NCBI GenBank assembly: GCA_026625185.1
Contig: CP113000.1
Location: forward strand, 2,682,651 to 2,714,650
Source: Thermodesulfobacteriota bacterium
Lineage (GTDB): Bacteria > Desulfobacterota > WTBG01 > JAGOGO01
Direction of reading: 5' to 3'
Length of the DNA: 32,000 bases
The notes beneath the pieces are model-generated. The model made no database searches and was not told the DNA's origin. It saw only the letters and a list, made by a program, of their open reading frames with translations. A program made the position numbers and the translations under genes. This document shows, one piece after another, positions 10,367 to 27,920 of this stretch. How positions within the stretch are numbered: position 1 is the first letter of the stretch; every line of letters starts with the position of its first letter.

Positions 10367-11095
10367 ATGAAAGGGATCATACTTGCCGGGGGGTTGGGAA
10401 CACGTCTTTTCCCTCTCACCAAAGTAACCAATAAACATCTTCTGCCGGTTTACGATAAACCCATGATCTATTATCCGATTCAAACCTTGGTGAACGCAGG
10501 GATTACTGATGTATTACTGGTAACCGGTGGAAACAGCGCGGGTGATTTTCTCCGGCTCATCGGAAACGGAAAAGAGCTTAAGCTTAAACACATTGAATAT
10601 ACCTATCAGGAAGGAGAAGGTGGGATTGCTCAAGCTTTAAGCCTGGCGGAAGAATTTGCGGATAACGGAAAAATTTGCATTATTTTGGGTGATAATATTA
10701 TTGAAAAAAATATCAACCGCGCGGTAGAAAATTTTAAAAAACAGGCAAAGGGGGCAAAAATTATATTGAAAGAGGTTTCGGATCCGGAGCGCTTTGGAGT
10801 CCCGGTTTTAGATGAAGATAGGATAATAGCGGTTGAGGAAAAACCGGAGGTTCCCAAGTCGAAGTTTGCGGTTATCGGGATTTATATGTTTGATAATACC
10901 GTATTCGATATTATCCGAACGCTCAAACCCTCTGAGCGTGGTGAACTGGAGATTACCGACGTAAACAATGCTTATATAAAGAGAGGGGATATGACGTATG
11001 AAATATTAGACGGCTGGTGGACGGACGCCGGAACTTTTGATTCGTTGCGAATTGCCACCAATTTAGTGGCCGAAACCGGTGCTAATAAAGTCTAA
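10367..11095 (+). CDS. rmlA: Glucose-1-phosphate thymidylyltransferase, short form
   Basis: 242 aa. It has the N-terminal GGLGTRLFPLT nucleotidyltransferase motif and sits first in an rmlACBD-like cluster. Confidence 0.75.
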   Translation: MKGIILAGGLGTRLFPLTKVTNKHLLPVYDKPMIYYPIQTLVNAGITDVLLVTGGNSAGDFLRLIGNGKELKLKHIEYTYQEGEGGIAQALSLAEEFADNGKICIILGDNIIEKNINRAVENFKKQAKGAKIILKEVSDPERFGVPVLDEDRIIAVEEKPEVPKSKFAVIGIYMFDNTVFDIIRTLKPSERGELEITDVNNAYIKRGDMTYEILDGWWTDAGTFDSLRIATNLVAETGANKV

Positions 11096-11111
11096 AAAGA
11101 GGATAAGCGCT

Positions 11112-11567
11112 ATGATCATGGGCGTCAAAACCAAACTGTTGAAGGTGTTCCCGGATGAACGCGGGCGTTTGATGGAAATGCTTCGGTCGGACGATGAAAT
11201 TTTTATGAAGTTTGGGCAGGTATATATGACCACCGCCTTTCCTGGGGTCGTGAAAGGATGGCATTATCATAAAGTGCAGTATGACAACATGGTAGTGGTC
11301 AAAGGCATGATGAAGATAGTTCTATATGACAGCCGCAATGATTCACCAACCCATAAAGAAGTAAATGAATTTTTTCTCGGTGATTACAACCCGCAGCTTC
11401 TGCAGATTCCTCCCTTGGTTTTTCACGGATTTAAATGTGTAAGTGAAAGTGAAGCGCTGGTTATCAACATACCTACCGAGGCATATAACTATTCTCTTCC
11501 TGATGAATACCGGGTCTCTCCCGATGATAATGATATTCCTTATGATTGGAATCGCAAGGACGGTTAA
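11112..11567 (+). CDS. rmlC: dTDP-4-dehydrorhamnose 3,5-epimerase family protein (short cupin form)
   Basis: The track ORF is 11079..11567. I prefer ATG 11112, 8 nt after AAGAGGA. It has an RmlC-like core (FPDERG...GWHYHK...DN) and lies between rmlA and rmlB. Confidence 0.7.
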   Translation: MIMGVKTKLLKVFPDERGRLMEMLRSDDEIFMKFGQVYMTTAFPGVVKGWHYHKVQYDNMVVVKGMMKIVLYDSRNDSPTHKEVNEFFLGDYNPQLLQIPPLVFHGFKCVSESEALVINIPTEAYNYSLPDEYRVSPDDNDIPYDWNRKDG

Positions 11568-11596
11568 CAATCATCCCTTTTGGCGGGAGAATGATG

Positions 11597-12625
11597 ATGA
11601 AAATTTTAGTAACCGGCGGCGCCGGTTTTATCGGGTCTAATTATATCCTTTTCATGCTGCAAACCTTTCCGGACGTTCAGATAACAAATGTGGACAAATT
11701 AACCTATGCGGGAAATCTGGAAAATCTTTCGGCAATTGAATGCAAGGATTCCTATTGTTCACGGTACCGGTTTATTAAAGGTGACATTGTTGATCGTATA
11801 TTGATTGATAATCTTTTATCGCAGGGGTTTGATGCGGTCATTAACTTTGCCGCGGAGTCGCATGTTGATCGCAGTATTGAAGAAGCGGGGATTTTTATCC
11901 GGACTAATGTTTTGGGCACTCAAATTTTATTAGAAGGAATCAAAAAATATAAGGTAGGCCGATTTATTCAGATTTCAACCGATGAAGTTTATGGCTCTTT
12001 AGGTCCCGAAGGAAAATTTACGGAAGAGTCGTATCTTAAACCGAACAGCCCCTATTCGGCAAGTAAAGCCGGCGCCGACTTGATCTGCCGGGCGTATTTC
12101 AAGACTTTTAGCCTTCCCGTCATTATTACTCGTTGCTCGAATAATTATGGCCCTTATCAATTTCCCGAAAAGGTTATTCCGTTATTTATTACTAATGCTA
12201 TCGAAAATATACCGTTACCGCTTTATGGTGATGGTCTTAATATCCGCGACTGGATTTATGTGGAAGACCACTGCCGAGCAATCGATCTGGTTTTGCGCAA
12301 AGGTAAAGTCGGTGAAATATATAATATCGGGGGAAATTGTGAAAGGACCAATATCACCATCACCCAAATGATTCTCGAAAAATTAAATAAACCAAAAACG
12401 CTCATTACGTTCGTGAAAGATCGTCCGGGACATGATCGCCGGTATGCAATTGCGGCCGATAAAATAGAAAAAGAAATAGGGTGGAAGCCGGCACACTCTT
12501 TTGAAACCGGAATAGATAAAACCATCACCTGGTATCTGAACAATAAATCGTGGTGGGAAAAAATTAAAAGCGGGGAATACCGAAACTATTATCACCAAAT
12601 GTATGGTAACCGCTCATCGTTGTAG
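11597..12625 (+). CDS. rmlB: dTDP-glucose 4,6-dehydratase
   Basis: It has the Rossmann motif MKILVTGGAGFIGS, the catalytic YSASKAG and DEVYG. The start is chosen 6 nt after GGGAGA; the track starts at 11546, and ATGs at 11591/11594 are also possible. Confidence 0.9.
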   Translation: MKILVTGGAGFIGSNYILFMLQTFPDVQITNVDKLTYAGNLENLSAIECKDSYCSRYRFIKGDIVDRILIDNLLSQGFDAVINFAAESHVDRSIEEAGIFIRTNVLGTQILLEGIKKYKVGRFIQISTDEVYGSLGPEGKFTEESYLKPNSPYSASKAGADLICRAYFKTFSLPVIITRCSNNYGPYQFPEKVIPLFITNAIENIPLPLYGDGLNIRDWIYVEDHCRAIDLVLRKGKVGEIYNIGGNCERTNITITQMILEKLNKPKTLITFVKDRPGHDRRYAIAADKIEKEIGWKPAHSFETGIDKTITWYLNNKSWWEKIKSGEYRNYYHQMYGNRSSL

Positions 12626-12669
12626 GGGCAGGGCAGGCTCTGCCCGACTTAATTTGATATAAATAAATT

Positions 12670-13515
12670 ATGAAAAAAATATTGATCATCGGCGCGGATG
12701 GCATGCTGGGGAGTGAGCTTTGTCGAACCCTCAAGGGAGAAAAGGTATGTATCGGCAGCACCATACAAGAACTGGATATCACGGATTATGACCGGACCAT
12801 CGAGACCATAAAAAGGCTTGAGCCTCAGGTGGTGATTAATGCGGCTGCCTTTACCATGGTTGATCTCTGTGAACAGGAAAAAGAAAAAGCTTTTGCCGTA
12901 AATGCGTTGGGAGCAAGAAACGTTGCCGTGGGATGTCGAGAAACAGGAGCACGGTGTGTTTACCTAAGTACGGATTACGTGTTCGACGGTAAAAAGGATA
13001 GACCGTATGCTGAAGCCGATCTTCCTAATCCCCTTTCCGTTTATGGATTATCAAAGTTTCAGGGAGAGAAGCATGTTGAAAAAAATTTAGACGATTATCT
13101 TATCATTCGGTCATCGTGGCTGTTCGGAAAACAAGGATCAAATTTTGTAAACACGGTTATAAAACTTTCCCGGGAAAAAACCGAACTAACGATGGTGAAT
13201 GATCAAAAAGGATCCCCCACTTATACTGCTGATTTGAGTCAGGCCATTTCGTTATTAATTGAAAAGGATTTGAAAGGGATTTTTCATGTAACTAATCGTG
13301 GCTGCTGTACCTGGTTTGAATTTGCGCAAAAAATCCTTGACCTCATCGGCAGTCCTATGAAGCTCATCCCCATCTCTTCCTCGCAATCTGGCCGAGCAGC
13401 GCAAAGGCCTTACAATTCAGTTTTAAATTCTGAAAAATTTATAAGGAAAACCGGCTTCATTATGTCTCATTGGCATGATGCCTTGGTTCGCTGTATCAAA
13501 ACTATGGATTTGTAA
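12670..13515 (+). CDS. rmlD: dTDP-4-dehydrorhamnose reductase
   Basis: 281 aa. It has GADGMLGSEL and YGLSKFQGE (YxxxK) and is the last gene of the rml cluster. Confidence 0.9.
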   Translation: MKKILIIGADGMLGSELCRTLKGEKVCIGSTIQELDITDYDRTIETIKRLEPQVVINAAAFTMVDLCEQEKEKAFAVNALGARNVAVGCRETGARCVYLSTDYVFDGKKDRPYAEADLPNPLSVYGLSKFQGEKHVEKNLDDYLIIRSSWLFGKQGSNFVNTVIKLSREKTELTMVNDQKGSPTYTADLSQAISLLIEKDLKGIFHVTNRGCCTWFEFAQKILDLIGSPMKLIPISSSQSGRAAQRPYNSVLNSEKFIRKTGFIMSHWHDALVRCIKTMDL

Positions 13516-14952: not shown

Positions 14953-16356
14953 ATGACCTATCGAAGATTGCTTGAGTCTATTCTCGCACATGCCTTGAGC
15001 TTTATTGAGAGCCTTGACGAAGGTCCCGTATCGGCAACCGCAAGTCTCGCTGACTTACGCCGACGTTTAGGCCACCCGCTTGCCGACAAGGGTATGGACG
15101 CAACTCATGTTATTGATGAATTAGTTGCTGATGTGAAAGGTGGGGTGTTAGGTACTTCAGGAGGACGGTTCTTCGGTTTTGTAGTCGGCGGCTCAGTGCC
15201 TGCCGCTCTCGCTGCTGATTGGCTTACGTCTACTTGGGACCAGCCCGCCGCTTTGTTCGCTTCCGGACCGGCAGTAGCCGTCATTGAAGAAATTTGTGGA
15301 CAATGAGTGAAAGAGCTGCTGAGTTTACCTCAGCAAGCAAGTTTTTCTCTGGTAACGGGTTGTTCAATGGCTCATGTGACCTGTCTTGCAGCTGCCCGAA
15401 ATGCTTTGTTGACCAAACATAGCTGGGATGTGGAGCGAAAGGGATTGAACGGCGCCCCTCCAATCCGCATCTTGAGTAATAACCAACGACACGGCTGGAT
15501 TGAGCGTACTGTCCGTTTATTGGGGATTGGTAACGACAACGTTTTTGATTCACCCGTAAATAAACAGGGGCATTTAGACTCAGAAGACCTACTGAGGGGA
15601 CTCCAAGAACATGCCGGCAAGCCAACCATCGTATTGTTACAGGCTGGCGAAATCAACACCGGGGTATTTGAGCCTTTTGAGGAGCTTATCCCAATCGCGC
15701 ACGAGCATGGTGCTTGGGTTCATATTGATGGGGCTTTTGGGCTATGGGCAGCGGCAAGCTCCAAATATAAACATTTGCTAAAGGGAGTAGATCAAGCCGA
15801 TTCGTGGATAGTTGATGGGCATAAATGGCTTAATGTGCCCTATGATTGCGGCTATGCCTTTGTTAAAGATTCAAGAGCTCCTCAAGCGGCCATGTCTCAC
15901 CGAGCGAGTTATTTAACCCACGATGCGGTTGCCCGTGACCAAATCGACTGGACTCCGGAATGGTCTCACCGTGGACGCGGCATCGCTACCTATGCCGCTA
16001 TCCGGCAACCAGGTAAACAGGGAGTGGCTGAACTAATCGAAAGCACTTGTCAATATGCGCATCGCCTGGTAACACGCATTAGTGCATTACCCTATGCTGA
16101 ATTGATTTGGGAACCACAAATAAACCAGGGGTTAGTACGTTTTCTCAGCGCGAAACTCAATTCGACGGATGCTGATCATGATCTGCGCACAGACAGCGTT
16201 ATTGCAAATGTTCTTGAATCCGGTGAAGCTTTTTTTTCTGGTACTACGTGGCAAGGTAAACGCTGTATGCGCGTTTCGGTGTGTAATTGGAAAACAAATG
16301 ATTTGGATGTTGAGGGAGCCATCAATGCCGTTCAACTTGCTTTATCAAAGCAGTAA
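14953..16356 (+). pseudogene. Group II PLP-dependent decarboxylase interrupted by one in-frame TGA (15304-15306)
   Basis: Track ORFs 14953..15306 and 15307..16356 are in the same frame and abut at a single TGA. The combined 467 codons match the family: GGRFFGFVVGGSVPAALAADWL, VTGCSMAHVTCLAAAR and the PLP lysine motif DGHKWLNVPYDCG. GC is visibly higher than in neighbouring genes. Confidence 0.8.
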
Positions 16357-21162: not shown

Positions 21163-22534
21163 GGGGTACAATTAAAAAGTGTGTAAATAGATAAAAAGGC
21201 GGTGTATCCTTTTAAATTGAGGCCAATCAACTATAAAGAATGGAGACACCCCCATGAAAAAAAGTATCACAGAGACGGCAAGGCCGTCAAGCGGGACATA
21301 TTAGGTATTGGAGGAAATGGTTCGGCTGAAGGTGCAGGAATACATTCAGGAAATTCTGGAGAACGAAGTTGAGGTCTTTTTGGGTAGGAAGAAATCTGAA
21401 CGGATCAAGCCCATCGATGGCACACCGGGGTATTGGAACGGACACGGGAATCGGAAGAAGTTCACCGTGATGAACGGAACCATCACCATTCGTCGTACAC
21501 GTGTAAGGGGGAGCGAAGAACGATTCAAGAGCACGGTAATTCCTTTTTTCAAGCGCCGGTCGAAAGAAGTGGGGCAGTTGCTGCCGGAGCTATATTTACA
21601 CGGGTTGGCCAAAGGGGATTTTGAGATGGCACTGGGGGTTTATTGGGATAGGGAGTGTCGCTGTCGGCTTCGGCGATAGAGCGGCTGAAGGCGAAGTGGC
21701 ATTTTGAGTATGAGGAGTGGAAGTGTTAGGATCTCTCATCTTTTGAGGTGGTCTATCAGTGGGCAGATGGTATTTATGTGAAAGCCGGGCTGGAAAAAGA
21801 CAAGGCTGCGCTTTTTTTAGTGATTATCGGGGCTCTCAGCAACGGAAGGAAAGTTTTTCTTGCCTGTGAGAGCGGATATCGGGAGAGCAAGGAATCCTGG
21901 AACGGAGTTCTGAGGGGACTGATAAATCGTGGCCTGAGGCTCGGCAGGTTAACGATTGCCGATGGTCATCTGGGAATATGGTCTGCGCTCGGAGAGCTTC
22001 ATGCTGAAGGAAAAGAGGAGCGGCGCTGGAATCATAAGATCAGGAATGTCCTTGACTGTTTTCCCAAGAGGCTGCGTTCCGAGGCGGCAGAAAAGCTCAA
22101 ACCGGTTCCCTATGCGGAAACGCTCGTGGAGTGTGAGCGTCGTCGGGATGCGTTCATTGGGCATTACCGGAAAGACTTTCCCAAGGCGACAGAGAAACTT
22201 CTCTCGGATTGAGACAGAATGATTACATTCTACTCATTCCCGAAGTAACACTGGCCGCACCTGCGGACAACGAATGTGGTTGAGTCCTCCTTCAGCTCGG
22301 TAAGACTGAGGACGGATGCAGCGAAGCGGTTCAAGAAGGTTCAAAATGCCACAGCAATGATCTGGAAACTGCTGCGGGTCGCGGAGAAGAACTTCCGTAC
22401 GTTAAAAGGTCATTGGTTGTTGCCTGACGTTCACGCAGAAAAAACGTTTGTCGATGGCGTCGCGAAACGGGAGTCAAAAGGACCGGAAAGGATGGCCGCC
22501 TAAATGCTTTTTACACACTTATTTAAAAGACCCC
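21163..22534 (+). mobile_element. Degenerate IS256-family insertion sequence (~1.37 kb) with imperfect terminal inverted repeats
   Basis: The left end is GGGGTACAATTAAAAAGTGTGTAAATAG. The reverse complement of the right end is GGGGTCTTTTAAATAAGTGTGTAAAAAG. They match at 21 of 30 positions, including the terminal GGGGT and an 11-nt core AAGTGTGTAAA. They enclose the broken transposase. I see no target-site duplication. Confidence 0.7.
21308..22503 (+). pseudogene. IS256-family (mutator-type) transposase pseudogene
   Basis: There are three track ORFs (21308..21679, 21748..22212, 22276..22503), plus my reading of the gaps. Family-typical segments are LPELYLHGLAKGDFEMAL, SASAIERLKAKW..EYEEW, VYQWADGIYVKAG, LVIIGA, ADGHLGIW, RRWNHKIRNVL and TTNVVESSFSSVR. 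They are interrupted by at least one frameshift (~21640) and several in-frame stops. Confidence 0.85.
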
Positions 22535-22713: not shown

Positions 22714-22854
22714 TAGAAAAAAGTATTAAATAGAGCGAACTTCTGCAAATCGGAAGAAACCGAGTTTTTTCAGTTGGTTAAGATTTAACACTTTGAAAAA
22801 TCAGAACCGTTTTGTTATGATCCTTTAATATTGAAAATAGAAAGGAGTTTTCTC

Positions 22855-24975
22855 ATGCTTTTTTCCCAACGTGTCTTTTGCGGACAAATTACTCCGGATG
22901 ATGTCGGACGCAAGGTGCTTCTTGGCGGCTGGGTGGATGCTTTTCGAGATCACGGGGGCTTGCTGTTCATCCATTTGCGCGATCGCAGCGGTATCATGCA
23001 GATTGTTTTCAGCCCGGAAGTGGCCTCGGCAGACCTCTGCCAGAGGGCAGCATCCTTACACGCCGAATATTGCATTGCGGTTACGGGTGAAGTCAAAAAG
23101 CGGCTCGCGGGTACGGAAAACCCCAACATAGAAACAGGAAATATTGAACTAATGGCCACTGAACTGACTGTGCTTTCTGAATCGGACACTCTTCCCTTTA
23201 CCGTTTCCGAAAAGGCTATGGTACCGGCCACGGTAGACAGAAGCGCAGACAAGGTGGCTGAGGATTTGCGTCTCCAGTACCGGTATCTGGACATCCGTCG
23301 TCCTTCTATGCGGGACAATCTAATGGCCCGACACCGCATCTTTCAGTGTGTTCGAGAATTTCTCGACTCAAAGGGCTTTCTGGAAATAGAAACCCCGGTG
23401 TTGACGTCAAGCACTCCTGAGGGGGCCCGGGATTATCTGGTACCCAGTCGCCTCCACCCGCATAATTTTTACGCCCTGCCCCAGTCCCCGCAGCTCTTCA
23501 AACAACTGCTGATGATCGGAGGAATGGAACGCTACTTTCAAATAGCACGCTGCTTCCGCGATGAAGATCTGCGGCCCAACCGACAGCCGGAATTTACTCA
23601 GCTTGATATTGAAGCCTCTTTCATTGATGAAGAATTTATATATGAACTGGTTGAAGAACTTACCGTCAAGATGTTCGCTGTCGTCGGCATTAAGCTTTCC
23701 AGACCTTTTGCTCGCATCACCTATGCAGACGCGATGGATACAACCGGTTCCGATCGTCCCGATTTGCGCTTCGGCCTGCGCTTTGTCGATGTGACGGATG
23801 TGTTTTATCAAACCAATTATTCGATCTTCCGACAGATTCTGCAGCGTGGTGGCTACATCAAGGGCATTAACATTAAAGGCCAGTCCGAGATGCTCAGCAA
23901 GAATGTACTGCAAAATGAATACGCCAAGGAAATCGCCCCTTCGTTTGGCGCCAAGGGTATGACCTGGATGCGCTCCGAAGGGGGGAAACTCGAATCCAAT
24001 ATCGTCCAGTTTTTCAGCAACCAGGAACTGGAAGCGTTACGTAAAAAATTCGACGTTGCCGACGGAGACGTCCTTATTATGATCGCCGATCCTTCGTATG
24101 CCATTGTAACATCGGCTCTCGGCCAGTTGCGCCTGCATTTGGCGAATCGTCTCAGTCTTATTCCCGCAAATAGCTTTTTTCCGGTCTGGATCACGGAGTT
24201 CCCGCTGTTTGAGGCTACCGATGAAGGAGCCGTCACATCCAGCCACCATCCCTTTACTGCGCCGGATCGGATCGATTTTGATCCTAAAAATATTGAAGAA
24301 CTGCTGATGCTGCGTTCACGTGCCTACGACTTAGTCATGAACGGCGAAGAACTGGGTGGCGGTAGCATCCGTATCAACGATCGCAACCTACAACGCAAAA
24401 TATTTGCAGCGCTTGGATTGACCGAAGAGGAAACAAGGGAAAAATTTGGCTTTTTTCTGCGGGCTTTCGATTTCGGAGCGCCTCCGCACGGCGGTTTGGC
24501 GCTGGGCATGGACCGCACCGTGTCGATGATTCTCCAAACTCCGTCTATCCGCGAGGTAATCGCGTTTCCCAAAAACCGTAGCGCCGCCTGTCCTCTGACC
24601 GGCGCGCCTTCTGCGGTTAAACGTGAACAACTGGCCGAGCTGAGGCTGTTGAATCTGGGCGCTCAGGATTTGTTGCTCGGAACAGCCCAAAAAGGAAATA
24701 GGATAGATCATTTGTCCTGGGTATCGCGCATTGGTATTTCAGCTAAGGAGCGTCCAGTAATGGAACAAATTCTTACCCAGGCCGAGGAACTGGTTTTGCT
24801 TGCCACCCAAAAGGCAGGCAAAGAAGAGCCCATCCGCAACGTCGCTCCGGTCACAAATCACACCCGCCCGGGGACGGAAGAAAAACGCTCAGCCCTCTCG
24901 CAAACAGGTCAACTACTTAAGAGCGCGCCCGCGGTTAAAGGCAATTACTATAAGGTCGCCAGCATTCTGGAATAA
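22855..24975 (+). CDS. aspS: Aspartyl-tRNA synthetase (bacterial type with GAD insertion) fused in frame to a C-terminal GatC-like domain
   Basis: ATG 22855 lies 7 nt after AAAGGAG; the track starts at TTG 22831. The OB anticodon domain is GWVDAFRDHGGLLFIHLRDRSG. Class II motifs are FLEIETPVLT, FRDEDLRPNRQPEFTQLDIE and GGLALGMDRTVSMIL. The ORF continues about 100 codons past the normal AspRS end into a GatC-like sequence. Confidence 0.9.
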   Translation: MLFSQRVFCGQITPDDVGRKVLLGGWVDAFRDHGGLLFIHLRDRSGIMQIVFSPEVASADLCQRAASLHAEYCIAVTGEVKKRLAGTENPNIETGNIELMATELTVLSESDTLPFTVSEKAMVPATVDRSADKVAEDLRLQYRYLDIRRPSMRDNLMARHRIFQCVREFLDSKGFLEIETPVLTSSTPEGARDYLVPSRLHPHNFYALPQSPQLFKQLLMIGGMERYFQIARCFRDEDLRPNRQPEFTQLDIEASFIDEEFIYELVEELTVKMFAVVGIKLSRPFARITYADAMDTTGSDRPDLRFGLRFVDVTDVFYQTNYSIFRQILQRGGYIKGINIKGQSEMLSKNVLQNEYAKEIAPSFGAKGMTWMRSEGGKLESNIVQFFSNQELEALRKKFDVADGDVLIMIADPSYAIVTSALGQLRLHLANRLSLIPANSFFPVWITEFPLFEATDEGAVTSSHHPFTAPDRIDFDPKNIEELLMLRSRAYDLVMNGEELGGGSIRINDRNLQRKIFAALGLTEEETREKFGFFLRAFDFGAPPHGGLALGMDRTVSMILQTPSIREVIAFPKNRSAACPLTGAPSAVKREQLAELRLLNLGAQDLLLGTAQKGNRIDHLSWVSRIGISAKERPVMEQILTQAEELVLLATQKAGKEEPIRNVAPVTNHTRPGTEEKRSALSQTGQLLKSAPAVKGNYYKVASILE
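24697..24972 (+). other. gatC: GatC-like domain (last 92 codons of the aspS ORF)
   Basis: NRIDHLSWVSRIGISAKERPVMEQILTQAEEL...LKSAPAVKGNYYKVASILE aligns by eye, without gaps at either end, to Bacillus GatC as I recall it ([36 protein letters not shown]...MKNAPDHKDGYIRVPSILD). No separate gatC ORF precedes the gatA-like gene. Confidence 0.8.
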
Positions 24976-24989
24976 AGGGAGAAATCTTC

Positions 24990-26189
24990 ATGGATTCAAT
25001 CTTTTTCTACCGCAATCTTGAAATCGTCGCTCCCAAGGACGGTCATTTACAAGGGGTGAAGATTGCGATTCAACCCAACATCTCAGTGGCGGGCTGGCCG
25101 ACAGAGGCCGGTTCAAAAGCACTCCTCAATTTTAAAGCGATAGAAGACGCAACCATTGTGCAGCGACTTCGTCAAGCTGGAGCCTTCGTGTGCGGCTCAA
25201 CCCACATGAGTGAATTCGGTTTCGGTCTGGCCGGCAGCAAGGCAGGCGAGGCGCTTCGGCGACAGGCAGCCGATGTTGAACTGGTTTTAGACTTGATGGG
25301 CGAGAGCCGTCTGGCTGCTTTGCATGCGGCGGCTTGCGGTTTCAAACCCAGTTACGGTTTGGTGTCGCAATTTGGTCTCATCGGATTGATTCCGTCAATG
25401 GAGTGTTGCGGCCTGCTATCCAGAAATTTGAAAAATATTCGTGAAATTTTGCAAACCATTGCCGGTCCGGATGAACTGGATTTTTCAATTCCCGATGAAG
25501 AGATCCCGAATTTTTCCCCGCAGGAAATTGACCCGCAAAAAACAACCATCGGTTTTATTACGGAACCGCAAAACGAATTGTCTAACGATAAGGAAGCAAT
25601 ATTTCGTTATTCTGTTGATGAACTTAAAAAAGCCGGCTTTTCCTTACGCGAAATGTCGCTGCCTGACTTTTCGCTTTTCTCTCTCGTCCATAAAATCGTG
25701 GGCTCCGTGGAGGCCTCATCCTGCGCCGGACGCTATGATTCGGTGCGTTACGGTCCGCGCGCACTGGGAACCAAAAACTGGAACGATATGTATCTTCTCT
25801 CGCGCGGCGCAGCCTTTGGGTTGCTCTTGAAAAGCTATCTGTTTCAAGGCGCATTTTTCCAGTTTGAAAACTACGGCGCGTATGAAAATGCCTGCCGAAT
25901 TCGTGCGCGTCTGCTCACGGATATGCAGTTGCTCCTTTCGCAGGCCGACTTTCTGGTTTTTCCGATAGATAACGGCGCCACCTCAGGAGCATCTGAGTTG
26001 CTTGCGGACACGTATAATCAATTCGCCTCAACCGTTTTTGCCAATGTTACTGGTCAGCCTGCATTGTACCTGCCGCCGGTGTCGGGGGCGGCGCATTTAG
26101 GATTTCAACTGGCGGGGCCGAGGCTTAGTGATGCACGGTTGCTTGCGGTTGGTGAATATCTTCTGAATATGCGCAACGGAGGTAAATAG
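24990..26189 (+). CDS. GatA-like amidase-signature protein, shortened and with degenerate catalytic motifs (probable pseudo-glutaminase)
   Basis: 399 aa against about 485 for GatA. It is collinear with GatA from the IKDNI region to the C-terminus (GFKPSYGLVSQFGL, SVEASSCAGRYDSVRYG, NVTGQPALYLP). However, IKDNI reads IQPNI, GGSSGGS reads AGSKAGE and DTGGSIR reads DLMGESR. About 18 residues before the Gly/Ser loop and the N-terminal ~65 residues are missing. The RBS AGGGAG is present. Confidence 0.75.
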   Translation: MDSIFFYRNLEIVAPKDGHLQGVKIAIQPNISVAGWPTEAGSKALLNFKAIEDATIVQRLRQAGAFVCGSTHMSEFGFGLAGSKAGEALRRQAADVELVLDLMGESRLAALHAAACGFKPSYGLVSQFGLIGLIPSMECCGLLSRNLKNIREILQTIAGPDELDFSIPDEEIPNFSPQEIDPQKTTIGFITEPQNELSNDKEAIFRYSVDELKKAGFSLREMSLPDFSLFSLVHKIVGSVEASSCAGRYDSVRYGPRALGTKNWNDMYLLSRGAAFGLLLKSYLFQGAFFQFENYGAYENACRIRARLLTDMQLLLSQADFLVFPIDNGATSGASELLADTYNQFASTVFANVTGQPALYLPPVSGAAHLGFQLAGPRLSDARLLAVGEYLLNMRNGGK

Positions 26190-26191
26190 TT

Positions 26192-27628
26192 ATGGAATTT
26201 GAAGCGGTCATAGGATTAGAAATTCATGTCGAACTCAATTGCACCACTAAGATGTTTTGCGATTGTCCCAACCGTCCCGGCGACGACCCCAATGTCAATA
26301 CCTGTCCGACTTGCCTGTGGTTTCCGGGCGCTATGCCCCGATTTAGTCAGGAGGCACTTGAGAAGGCATCGATTTTATGTCTGGGGCTGAGCGCCGAACT
26401 TCAGCCCTTGAGCGCCTTCGACCAGAAGGTTTATTACTATCCGGATCTGCCGAAGGGCTTTCAATTATCGCAAGCCCATTTTCCCCTTGCGTGCGGCGGC
26501 GGAATCGACATTACAAACGAAGACGGTAAAACCAAAAGACTCCGCCTTCATCATATCCACATGGAAGAAGACGTCGCCAAACTTGTGCATGAAATGGAAG
26601 GACGCTTGCCGATCAGCCTGGTGGACTTCAACCGTGCCGGCTCGCCGCTGGTGGAAATAGTCACAGAGCCGGATTTCCGAACGCCCTATGAGGCTATGGA
26701 ATTTCTAAAGGCGCTACGCACGCAGGTCCGTTATGTAGGGTCCTCTGAGTGCAGCATGGAAAACGGGACGATGCGCGTCGACGCCAATATTTCCATACGC
26801 CCCAGTGGCACCAATCAGATGAACACCAAGGTTGAAGTAAAAAACATGAATTCCATCCGTCACGTTGGTGACGCCATCGCCCACGAAATCAGCCGCCAAA
26901 GCGCATGCATGCAAGCGGGTGAAACGATTATTCTGCATACACGCCTTTGGGACCCGGACAAAAAACTCACGCTCCCGATGCGCACCAAGTTTGAAGGCCC
27001 TTGTGTTCCCGATCCCAAAGTTCCGGTTATTAAATTATCACCCGACTGGATCGAAAAGATGCGTTCGCGTCTTCCGGAAATGCCCGCCGCAAGGGCAGAG
27101 CGCTTTGTCAAACAGCACGGACTGACTGATGAGGAAGCAAACTTTTTGAGTTCTGATCCGGAAGTCGCAAGGTTCTTTGAGGCGCTGATTGGCCAAGGAA
27201 TCGCGCCGCGCACAGCCATGCATTGGCTCATCACGCAGTTGATCCCGGCTGTTAAAGACCGGCAGCTGGACCTGAGCAGCTCACCTGTTACCCCAGCACG
27301 CTTCGCCAGTCTGCTTAGAATGCTTTCGCAGGACGAGATCAACGCCAATGCAGCGCGCGAGGTGCTTGTGTACCTGTTTGATAGTGACGAATCCCCGAAA
27401 AAAATCGTTGTTGCTCGTGGATTTCAGCAGGTTTCTGATCCCAAGGCTCTCGATGGGTTGATCGACAAGGTGCTAACAGCTCAACCGGAGACTGTAGCCA
27501 AGGTCCGGGGCGGCCAGGATAAAGCCATGGGCTTTCTAATCGGCCAGGTTATGAAAGCAGCAGGCGGTAAAGCCAATCCGAAAATAATACGGGAATTGCT
27601 TGTCAAAAAATTAAGCGAAATTTTATAG
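26192..27628 (+). CDS. gatB: Asp/Glu-tRNA amidotransferase subunit B
   Basis: 478 aa, starting 2 nt after the gatA-like stop. It has VIGLEIHVEL, FDQKVYYYPDLPKGFQLSQ, HIHMEEDVAKL, VDFNRAGSPLVEIVTEPD, MENGTMRVDANIS, VEVKNMNS and a C-terminal YqeY-like tail (GFLIGQVMKAAGGKANP). It is divergent but full length. Confidence 0.9.
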   Translation: MEFEAVIGLEIHVELNCTTKMFCDCPNRPGDDPNVNTCPTCLWFPGAMPRFSQEALEKASILCLGLSAELQPLSAFDQKVYYYPDLPKGFQLSQAHFPLACGGGIDITNEDGKTKRLRLHHIHMEEDVAKLVHEMEGRLPISLVDFNRAGSPLVEIVTEPDFRTPYEAMEFLKALRTQVRYVGSSECSMENGTMRVDANISIRPSGTNQMNTKVEVKNMNSIRHVGDAIAHEISRQSACMQAGETIILHTRLWDPDKKLTLPMRTKFEGPCVPDPKVPVIKLSPDWIEKMRSRLPEMPAARAERFVKQHGLTDEEANFLSSDPEVARFFEALIGQGIAPRTAMHWLITQLIPAVKDRQLDLSSSPVTPARFASLLRMLSQDEINANAAREVLVYLFDSDESPKKIVVARGFQQVSDPKALDGLIDKVLTAQPETVAKVRGGQDKAMGFLIGQVMKAAGGKANPKIIRELLVKKLSEIL

Positions 27629-27834: not shown

Positions 27835-27846
27835 GATTTTATTAAG

Positions 27847-27920
27847 TAGCGGGGTCTGGATTTGAACCAGAGACCTTTGGGTTATGAGCCCAACGAGCTT
27901 CCAGACTGCTCCACCCCGCA
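27847..27920 (-). tRNA. Initiator tRNA-Met (anticodon CAT)
   Basis: The hand-folded cloverleaf is TGCGGGG-TG-GAGC-AGTCTGGAA-GCTC-G-TTGGG-CTCATAA-CCCAA-AGGTC-TCTGG-TTCAAAT-CCAGA-CCCCGCT-A. Initiator hallmarks are three G:C pairs closing the anticodon stem, A11:U24 and an unpaired 1:72 position. The CCA is not encoded. Confidence 0.9.

Follow-up and report, generated by a model that had tools for sequence, protein, structure and literature searches.

A conserved short GatA homologue, predicted to lack glutaminase function, encoded between an AspRS-GatC fusion and gatB

The window studied here is a 32,000-nucleotide stretch of contig CP113000.1 (GenBank assembly GCA_026625185.1, positions 2,682,651 to 2,714,650, forward strand) from a Thermodesulfobacteriota bacterium; all coordinates below are counted from its first nucleotide. 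Three closely packed genes occupy positions 22831-27628 of the plus strand. The first (22831-24975) encodes a 714-residue fusion of aspartyl-tRNA synthetase (AspRS) to a GatC-like tail, the second (24990-26189) a 399-residue homologue of GatA that is termed GatA' in this report, and the third (26192-27628) a canonical GatB of 478 residues, the kinase/transamidase subunit. GatA' is the subject of the analysis: the Ser-cisSer-Lys triad and the glutamine-binding residues of GatA are missing from it. Its ATG is located 14 nt past the TAA stop of the fusion and 8 nt behind a Shine-Dalgarno sequence, AGGGAG, that directly follows that stop (24976-24981). Because the reading frame starts so close to the fusion stop, there is no upstream coding sequence from which a longer N-terminus could be translated. 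The TAG stop of GatA' (26187-26189) is separated by a 2-nt spacer from the ATG of gatB, and the Shine-Dalgarno sequence of the latter (GGAGG, 26178-26182) lies within the 3' end of the GatA' gene. Directly 5' of the operon, a consensus scan located a candidate promoter, by pattern only (TTGAAA-17-TATGAT with an upstream TG, 10 of 12 matches, 22793-22821).

Homology of GatA' to the amidase-signature superfamily was evident both in sequence and in fold. The protein scored 168.2 bits against Pfam Amidase (PF01425; cutoff 27, E=4.4e-49). In a phmmer search of solved chains, GatA chains were matched first, namely those of Aquifex (3h0l_A, E=1.7e-42), Thermus (3kfu_E), Thermotoga (3al0_A) and S. aureus (2df4_A, E=1.4e-34). 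With the ribosome-binding site, these matches bear out an earlier, sequence-only reading of 24990-26189 as the gene of a real GatA-like protein. The best NCBIfam family was GatA (TIGR00132) at 215.8 bits, which is under the equivalog cutoff of 481.1. An AlphaFold2 (AF2) model calculated from a diverse alignment had a pLDDT of 89.4 and a pTM of 0.91. When this model was submitted to Foldseek, the top matches were the GatA chains 3kfu_H/E, 3h0l_A, 3al0_A, 2df4_A and 4wj3_A (TMq 0.84-0.87), and the probability was 1.00 for many amidase-signature enzymes. An AF2 run on a shallow alignment of sequences 66-80% identical had given a pLDDT of 67, and the notion derived from it, that the interface regions become ordered only in the complex, was dropped once the diverse alignment gave 89.4. 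GatA' is related to GatA in its fold, its ancestry and the place of its gene, yet belongs neither with the active amidases nor with the GatA equivalogs.

The triad was defined as Ser-cisSer-Lys; in S. aureus GatA, Ser178 forms the covalent intermediate (PMC2330236). A canonical profile was built from 84 GatA representatives, and GatA' was aligned to the resulting hidden Markov model (HMM). Nodes 67-134 were paired with GatA' residues 16-83, and nodes 159-475 with residues 86-393. In the pairwise alignments to solved GatA chains, the canonical IAVKDNI was paired with IAIQPNI, such that the column of the catalytic Lys is occupied by Gln28; the codons of Q28-P29, at 25071-25076, stand in place of the catalytic Lys-Asp of "KDN" in pairwise and profile alignments alike. 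Further on in the pairwise alignments, LGSDTGGSIRQPA was paired with LVLDLMGESRLAA, which places Glu105 in the column of the nucleophilic Ser, as does the profile. This remnant of DTGGSIR reads D101-L-M-G-E105-S-R107 (25290-25310). Between these two sites, the 24 nodes 135-158, which hold the Gly/Ser loop and the cis-Ser and correspond to residues 126-149 of the Aquifex protein, are replaced by two residues in GatA'. The junction lies at S83-G86 (25236-25247), and a MAFFT alignment of representatives of the 50%-identity clusters has the same gap. The Gly/Ser-rich signature loop, GGSS[GS]GS, was thus absent from both the profile alignment and the representative multiple sequence alignment (MSA). 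The N-terminus is also short, by ca. 45-51 residues: residue 15-16 of GatA' corresponds to residue 59 in Aquifex, residue 66 in S. aureus and node 67 of the HMM.

The same columns were counted in 250 members of the short family to which GatA' belongs (described below) and in 80 canonical GatAs. Column 28 of the short family held Gln in 220, Arg in 13, His in 8 and Pro in 5 of the members and never Lys, the residue present in 72 of the 80 canonical sequences. Glu was found at column 105 in 248 of the 250 (96 of 97 when only non-redundant members are considered); the canonical residue there is Ser (71/80). The register of the cis-Ser depended on the method, as pairwise HMMER alignments to the S. 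aureus and Thermotoga proteins put S83 at this position, and the profile and the family MSA put the loop inside the deletion. In neither register is a cis-Ser conserved, because column 83 varies among Ser (119), Asp (109) and Glu (13) in the 250 sequences. Two candidate compensating residues were considered. A "migrated lysine", K84 beside S83, was rejected since close relatives vary at column 84 (R, Q, K or S), and a "shifted nucleophile", S106, one residue downstream of the Ser column, was rejected because Ala is found there in the wider family, whose motif is G-E-A-R.

The profile alignment had been named in advance as one check that could refute the proposal of a dismantled active site. 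Gln, a deletion and Glu were found at the Lys, cis-Ser and Ser columns, and the proposal stands. Its details fared unequally. The assignments of Gln to the triad Lys of IKDNI and of Glu to the Ser of DTGGSIR were both upheld, by the two kinds of alignment and by the family counts. The statement that GGSSGGS reads AGSKAGE in GatA' corresponds to one possible pairwise register; the profile and the MSA place the whole loop inside the deletion. The internal deletion had been put at about 18 residues and the missing N-terminal segment at about 65, and these figures were corrected to ca. 22 net and to the 45-51 given above.

The residues that hold the substrate were lost as well. When glutamine is bound to yeast GatFAB, its carboxylate is held by R334 and its amino group by D418, and E330 braces R334 (PMC4027206). 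Alignment to S. aureus GatA showed that R358 is replaced by Y283, E354 by L279 and Y309 by H234, and in the family MSA D425 is replaced by F345. GatA' therefore reads L279-L-K-S-Y283 (25824-25838) in place of the canonical E-V-K-R-R (E354...R358 in S. aureus), and F345 (26022-26024) stands where canonical GatA has an Asp (D425 in S. aureus, D418 in yeast). Column 283 was Tyr in 220 and Phe in 23 of the 250 short-family members (canonical Arg, 75/80), column 345 was Phe in 227 (canonical Asp, 69/80), and column 279 was Leu in the short family and Glu in canonical GatA. Neither the glutamine-binding Arg nor the Asp is present. It follows from these three replacements, taken with the loss of the triad, that glutamine should be neither bindable nor attackable at the classical site.

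What took the place of these residues is itself conserved. His234 (25689-25691), at a column where Tyr has a frequency of 0.94 in canonical GatA, was found in 97 of 97 non-redundant members, as were Q291, W264 and N265; the median column entropy was 1.8 bits. Nineteen columns were invariant among these 97 members, which share less than 70% identity. Q28 was less conserved (81/97). Throughout the family, polar or charged glutamine ligands are exchanged for aromatic residues (Y283, F345, W36). The presence of E105, H234 and Q291 among the most conserved residues of the family suggests that the remodelled pocket still does something.

GatA' proved to be one member of a large and coherent family. 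Among 5.8 billion proteins searched, 750 relatives were found at E<=1e-10, the best 120 being 65-99% identical and 395-430 residues long; a second search, seeded with a Desulfobacterales member 40% identical to GatA', added 1274 further relatives. The changes described above are common to more than 1000 clusters, from metagenome-assembled genomes (MAGs) of Syntrophales, Smithella and Desulfobacterales type. In an exhaustive search of 50%-identity clusters, the short family (ca. 25 clusters, >180 bits) was separated by a clear gap from canonical GatA (ca. 150 bits), and in a neighbour-joining tree it formed a single clade with a long stem. Source labels included Smithella, Syntrophus sp., Syntrophales, Syntrophaceae, Desulfosalsimonadaceae and Thermodesulfobacteriota bins. 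An intact reading frame of 390-415 residues was found in hundreds of independent assemblies.

Selection on the operon was assessed by the pairwise method of Nei and Gojobori (NG86). The ratio dN/dS (omega) was 0.14-0.26 for GatA', 0.06-0.09 for AspRS-GatC and 0.08-0.12 for GatB. Unsaturated pairs (dS 0.2-0.5) were included; for one of these, the loci L004 and L005 (dS 0.26), omega was 0.26 for GatA' versus 0.09 and 0.11 for the partner genes. Selection on GatA' is purifying and about twofold relaxed relative to its partners, so the dN/dS estimate that had been suggested as a check on the reading speaks for a maintained gene and against a decaying one. Databases disagree on what its product is. 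It is an "amidase family protein" at NCBI, a "hypothetical protein" in some annotations and a functional GatA in KEGG-style annotations (JGI), and metabolic reconstructions of Smithella and other Syntrophales are consequently inconsistent at the Asn-tRNA amidation step.

Some observations on the edges of the family are recorded here. Several sequences (P0020, P0021, P0085, P0086, P0107 and P0359; loci L002, L003 and L007) were 65-75% identical to Smithella/Syntrophales proteins and came from MAGs labelled Dehalococcoidia, Chloroflexota, Acidobacteria, Verrucomicrobia, Pirellulaceae, Anammoximicrobium or Omnitrophota. These labels are most likely due to contamination during binning, with transfer across phyla as the alternative. 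P0150, the closest canonical GatA, has a shorter N-terminus and was considered as an evolutionary intermediate; it was uninformative, as its relatives are ordinary GatAs of unrelated phyla. Other degenerate GatA-like lineages (P0154, P0156, P0158, P0166, P0167 and P0186) are 436-478 residues long and score 310-477 bits against TIGR00132, under its cutoff. At the Lys and nucleophile columns, the residues are Lys and Glu in P0156, Gln and Gln in P0158, and Gly and Asp in P0166; P0154 retains Lys and Ser, with the cis-Ser loop gone. Judged by these residues, the glutaminase of GatA may have been lost several times.

Gene context was examined in 89 loci: 80 of metagenomic origin, 8 in GTDB genomes and one on a 470-kb contig. 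An AspRS-GatC fusion, its tail complete to the last residue, was found directly upstream in all 70 loci with at least 400 nt of upstream sequence, which answers in the affirmative the earlier question of whether such short GatA-like genes always accompany the fusion. Downstream, gatB was present in 74 of the 74 loci with room for it, and the intergenic gaps were 4-30 nt in almost all cases. GatA' is thus co-encoded with gatC, in fused form, and with gatB. Beyond the three genes the flanks are unrelated. No conserved fourth gene, such as another glutaminase, was detected, the commonest flanking family occurring in 7 of the 49 loci that have 3 kb of flank or more, and the fetched loci (830 kb) and the window contained no second amidase gene. 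A glnS gene for glutaminyl-tRNA synthetase (GlnRS; 803 bits, cutoff 426) was located within 8 kb of the operon in loci L052, L053, L062 and L064. The amidotransferase should be unneeded for Gln-tRNA in these hosts, which fits a dedicated role in Asn-tRNA synthesis. A housekeeping hisS-aspS pair was found near the operon in L005 (1002-2774), L006 (488-3563), L065 and L083 (ca. 11.5-14.8 kb), and the unfused AspRS beside the operon was 45-46% identical to the fused one. Some hosts, then, make Gln-tRNA directly, and some have a second, unfused AspRS.

The fusion is already named in NCBIfam as PRK12820, "bifunctional AspRS/GatC", against which it scored 1321.8 bits over residues 5-714 (cutoff 1379); its score against the aspartate-tRNA ligase family PRK00476 was 754 bits. 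The Pfam domains tRNA_anti-codon (OB), tRNA-synt_2 (the class II core) and GAD mark a bacterial-type AspRS. Two features that we take to be marks of a non-discriminating AspRS (ND-AspRS), the His in RDHGG and the Gly in AGTENPN, are both present in the fusion. This signature was rejected as a discriminator, as it is also found in the unfused housekeeping AspRS of L005. The C-terminal tail of ca. 110 residues (approximately 601-714; 24631-24975) is GatC-like by a sub-cutoff Pfam match and by tail-profile search. A profile of 26 tails matched two GatC proteins, collinear from end to end: that of S. aureus (2df4_C) at E=8.9e-4 over residues 5-95 of 100, and that of P. aeruginosa (4wj3_C) at E=0.07 over residues 12-103 of 104; a pairwise search of the PDB with the tail returned no GatC, only a chance hit to ApoE. 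On these weak scores, the tail appears to be a divergent, full-length GatC homologue. GatB is intact. It scored 559.5 bits against the NCBIfam GatB equivalog PRK05477.1-2 (cutoff 338), contains Pfam GatB_N and GatB_Yqey, matched Aquifex GatB (3h0l_B) over its full length at 421 bits, and keeps the motifs GLEIHV, HMEEDVAK and VEIVTEPD.

The residue losses in the profile and in the family, the purifying selection and the invariant operon together make the case that GatA' is a pseudoenzyme for glutamine hydrolysis, a predicted assignment that we regard as well supported. The term is used here for a protein that has lost its catalytic residues and is under purifying selection; the residues are missing across 250 members and omega is 0.14-0.26. 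This agrees with the candidate pseudoenzyme of the original description. The further suggestion of a role that is structural rather than catalytic holds for the loss of the glutaminase residues, and "purely structural" is less certain given the high conservation of E105, H234 and Q291.

As to what the operon does, we lean towards a variant tRNA-dependent amidotransferase without glutamine hydrolysis, with GatA' as its A subunit, in a tethered Asn-transamidosome that uses ammonia from a source other than glutamine. The AspRS-GatC fusion, GatA' and GatB would assemble as a covalently tethered asparagine transamidosome. The AspRS part would load Asp on tRNA-Asn, which GatB would phosphorylate and then amidate, and GatA' would serve as the scaffold that GatB and GatC require for assembly. 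GatA and GatC are mutually dependent for folding and for GatB binding (PMC2330236). Since GatA' should be unable to release ammonia from glutamine, GatB would need another source of ammonia, most likely free cellular NH3/NH4+. GatFAB transamidates with NH4Cl when its glutaminase is bypassed or weakened, and better still with a truncated glutaminase scaffold (PMC4027206). In GatA', ammonia may enter via the former glutaminase pocket, which would be opened by the loop deletion and lined by Glu105, His234 and the aromatic residues. By this route, the host anaerobes probably make Asn-tRNA without glutamine; synthesis would be independent of the glutamine pool, and the ATP of glutamine synthetase would be saved. 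Such a saving would plausibly suit energy-limited syntrophs in ammonium-rich anoxic habitats. The habitats of Smithella and other Syntrophales are anoxic and ammonium-rich, and bioreactor and activated-sludge contig titles were found among the metagenome loci.

Several points weigh against this reading. The scores of the GatC tail are weak (Pfam GatC, 17.3 bits, E=0.0056, cutoff 23). The family members all come from metagenome bins, with no cultured organism among the source labels. A canonical gatA (and gatC), if present elsewhere in the hosts, could supply the glutaminase. The enzymatic inactivity, the complex, the dependence on ammonia and the continuity of the tunnel to GatB are all predictions made from sequence. 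Finally, the near-invariance of E105, H234, Q291, W264 and N265 exceeds what a passive scaffold would need, and these residues may have a catalytic or binding role.

The last point admits a more specific proposal, which we put forward tentatively as possible rather than probable. The pocket of GatA' may be an ammonium capture site, in which E105, H234, W36, Y283 and F345 would bind and deprotonate NH4+ and pass NH3 down the tunnel to GatB. If so, this would be the first glutamine-independent, ammonia-dependent route to Asn-tRNA on tRNA, an energy-saving one in syntrophic and sulfate-reducing Desulfobacterota.

The alternative that survives best, though we think it unlikely, is that the hosts also carry a canonical gatA, and perhaps a gatC, and that the operon encodes a second, specialised isoform. 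Such an isoform might come into play at high ammonium, or its purpose might be to sequester Asp-tRNA-Asn or to channel it, the glutamine route being served by the ordinary enzyme or by a canonical GatA with the same GatB. Parts of the pathway are indeed duplicated in hosts with hisS-aspS beside the operon (L005, L006, L065 and L083), the rate of evolution of GatA' is about double that of the partner genes, as expected of a less constrained paralogue, and the search for amidase genes was confined to the 830 kb of fetched loci and the window. Within that range, however, no second amidase gene was found, the operon GatB is canonical and full-scoring, and no GatC was seen apart from the fused one. 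Competition between an inactive and an active A subunit for GatB and GatC would moreover be harmful, and still GatA' is kept without exception, its translation coupled to that of gatB.

More doubtful is the idea that GatA' is not inert and has acquired a new active or binding site, either for ammonium capture and deprotonation or as a hydrolase of another nitrogen donor, acting via Glu105 and His234. The replacements are non-random, as the counts for E105 (96/97) and for H234, Q291, W264 and N265 (97/97 each) show against a median entropy of 1.8 bits; the glutamine ligands are consistently exchanged for aromatics (Y283, F345 and W36), and by homology the columns concerned form the wall of the former glutamine pocket, where the tunnel opens. 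The same conservation may also reflect packing that stabilizes the fold after the loss of the loop, however, and Q28 is conserved in only 81 of 97. No known amidase-signature enzyme functions without the Ser nucleophile.

That the complex has left tRNA amidation for other chemistry, as AtzE-AtzG did from GatA-GatC, seems very improbable. Complexes derived from GatA and GatC with new functions do exist, and one of them, 6c62_A from the s-triazine pathway (a "vestigial protein complex"), was among the fold matches. AtzE retains its triad, though, which GatA' has lost, and the partners of GatA' are an intact AspRS and a conserved GatB with a tRNA-binding YqeY tail, a set that is sensible only for tRNA-linked amidation. 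Last, the view of GatA' as a decaying pseudogene or an artefact of assembly or annotation, to which its sub-cutoff score of 215.8 bits (cutoff 481.1) and its labels as "amidase family protein" or "hypothetical protein" might lend colour, was refuted and is given next to no weight, in light of the 390-415-residue frames intact in hundreds of independent assemblies, the omega of 0.14-0.26, the 19 invariant columns among 97 members and the confident AF2 model.

Other features of the window were also noted. Some 330 nt upstream of the operon lies a broken transposase of the Mutator/IS256 family, in three fragments (21308-21679, 21748-22212 and 22276-22503, plus strand), two of which match Pfam Transposase_mut at profile positions 24-118 and 165-311. 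The GC content of the operon (22831-27628) is 0.513, compared to 0.422 for the rest of the window. These two observations raised the possibility of recent horizontal transfer, which was rejected because raised GC in the operon is general: it exceeded that of the flanks in most of 37 loci, by a mean of 5 points, at flank values of 0.45-0.66. The excess could be due to codon or amino-acid constraint or to repeated transfer. Just downstream of gatB, on the opposite strand, is a tRNA-Met (CAT) gene (27846-27920, minus), after which comes a terminator-like hairpin (27834-27807).

Farther upstream, a gene resembling pyridoxal phosphate (PLP)-dependent decarboxylases (14953-16356, plus) is interrupted by an in-frame TGA at 15304-15306. 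Its halves, a 117-residue ORF (14953-15303) and a 349-residue ORF (15307-16356), share one frame, and the latter matches Pfam Pyridoxal_deC from profile position 90 only; the split could represent a pseudogene, a recoded (selenocysteine) codon or a sequencing error. A dTDP-rhamnose cluster (10367-13515, plus) consists of an rmlA-like gene, a 162-residue ORF (11079-11567), rmlB and rmlD. The remaining genes are ordinary housekeeping ones (a DegP-type protease, enolase, nicotinate phosphoribosyltransferase, PIMT, LigA, PFK, phosphoglycerate mutase and homoserine dehydrogenase), and the window was therefore taken to be chromosomal.

The operon represents a widespread, strictly conserved variant in which the A subunit is predicted to be unable to bind or cleave glutamine and the C subunit is joined to AspRS. 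To our knowledge, the GatB or GatE kinase/transamidase of every tRNA-dependent amidotransferase described so far is accompanied by an active amide hydrolase, GatA or GatD. In the textbook view, the indirect route to Asn-tRNA takes its nitrogen from glutamine (PMC2330236). Full-text literature searches returned no description of a triad-less GatA, an AspRS-GatC fusion or an ammonia-using GatCAB variant. If the operon encodes the sole amidotransferase of its hosts, Asn-tRNA synthesis in them would be uncoupled from the glutamine pool, the complex would be a natural test case for the entry of ammonia into the GatCAB tunnel, and GatA' would be a new bacterial pseudoenzyme kept as an obligate subunit.

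Comparison with known systems places these features in context. Loss of glutamine hydrolysis with retention of the synthetase half has occurred in unrelated protein families that follow a like evolutionary logic. Mammalian carbamoyl-phosphate synthetase I takes ammonia from solution and does not hydrolyze glutamine. In NH3-dependent NAD synthetases, the glutaminase module is absent or inactive and free ammonia is used (PMC3376133). Among GatA relatives outside the classical role, Tse8, a type VI effector of P. aeruginosa, is reported in a preprint (bioRxiv 10.1101/733030) to act by binding the amidotransferase, not by catalysis; it is a toxin that is delivered into competing cells by injection and has an immunity gene encoded alongside, unlike GatA', which is an operon-encoded subunit. 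AtzE-AtzG (6C62), the 1-carboxybiuret hydrolase, resembles GatA' in that a GatA-family protein with a GatC-like partner is found outside the classical role, but AtzE still has its triad and is active as an amidase, with neither GatB nor AspRS as a partner.

Yeast mitochondrial GatFAB (4N0H/4N0I) is a non-canonical complex with a remodelled small subunit and provides the precedent for use of ammonia by the B subunit; its GatA keeps the S154-cisS130-K52 triad as well as R334 and D418, and GatF is not fused to a synthetase (PMC4027206). Canonical GatA (S. aureus 2DF4/2F2A, Aquifex 3H0L and Thermotoga 3AL0) shares its fold with GatA', and its gene likewise lies between gatC and gatB. The two proteins are collinear over the C-terminal 300 residues, with the segments EASS...RYDGVRYG and KP.YG..SR.G kept; the differences lie in the ca. 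50 N-terminal residues, the Gly/Ser loop, the triad and the Arg, Asp and Glu ligands, all of which GatA' lacks. The closest systems are the Asn-transamidosomes of T. thermophilus (3KFU) and P. aeruginosa (4WJ3), which are made of the same components, ND-AspRS and GatCAB with tRNA-Asn, and whose GatA chains were the best structural matches of GatA'. In those assemblies, separate proteins are joined by the tRNA and GatA is an active glutaminase, whereas here AspRS carries GatC at its C-terminus in a single chain, and the A subunit is predicted to be inactive.

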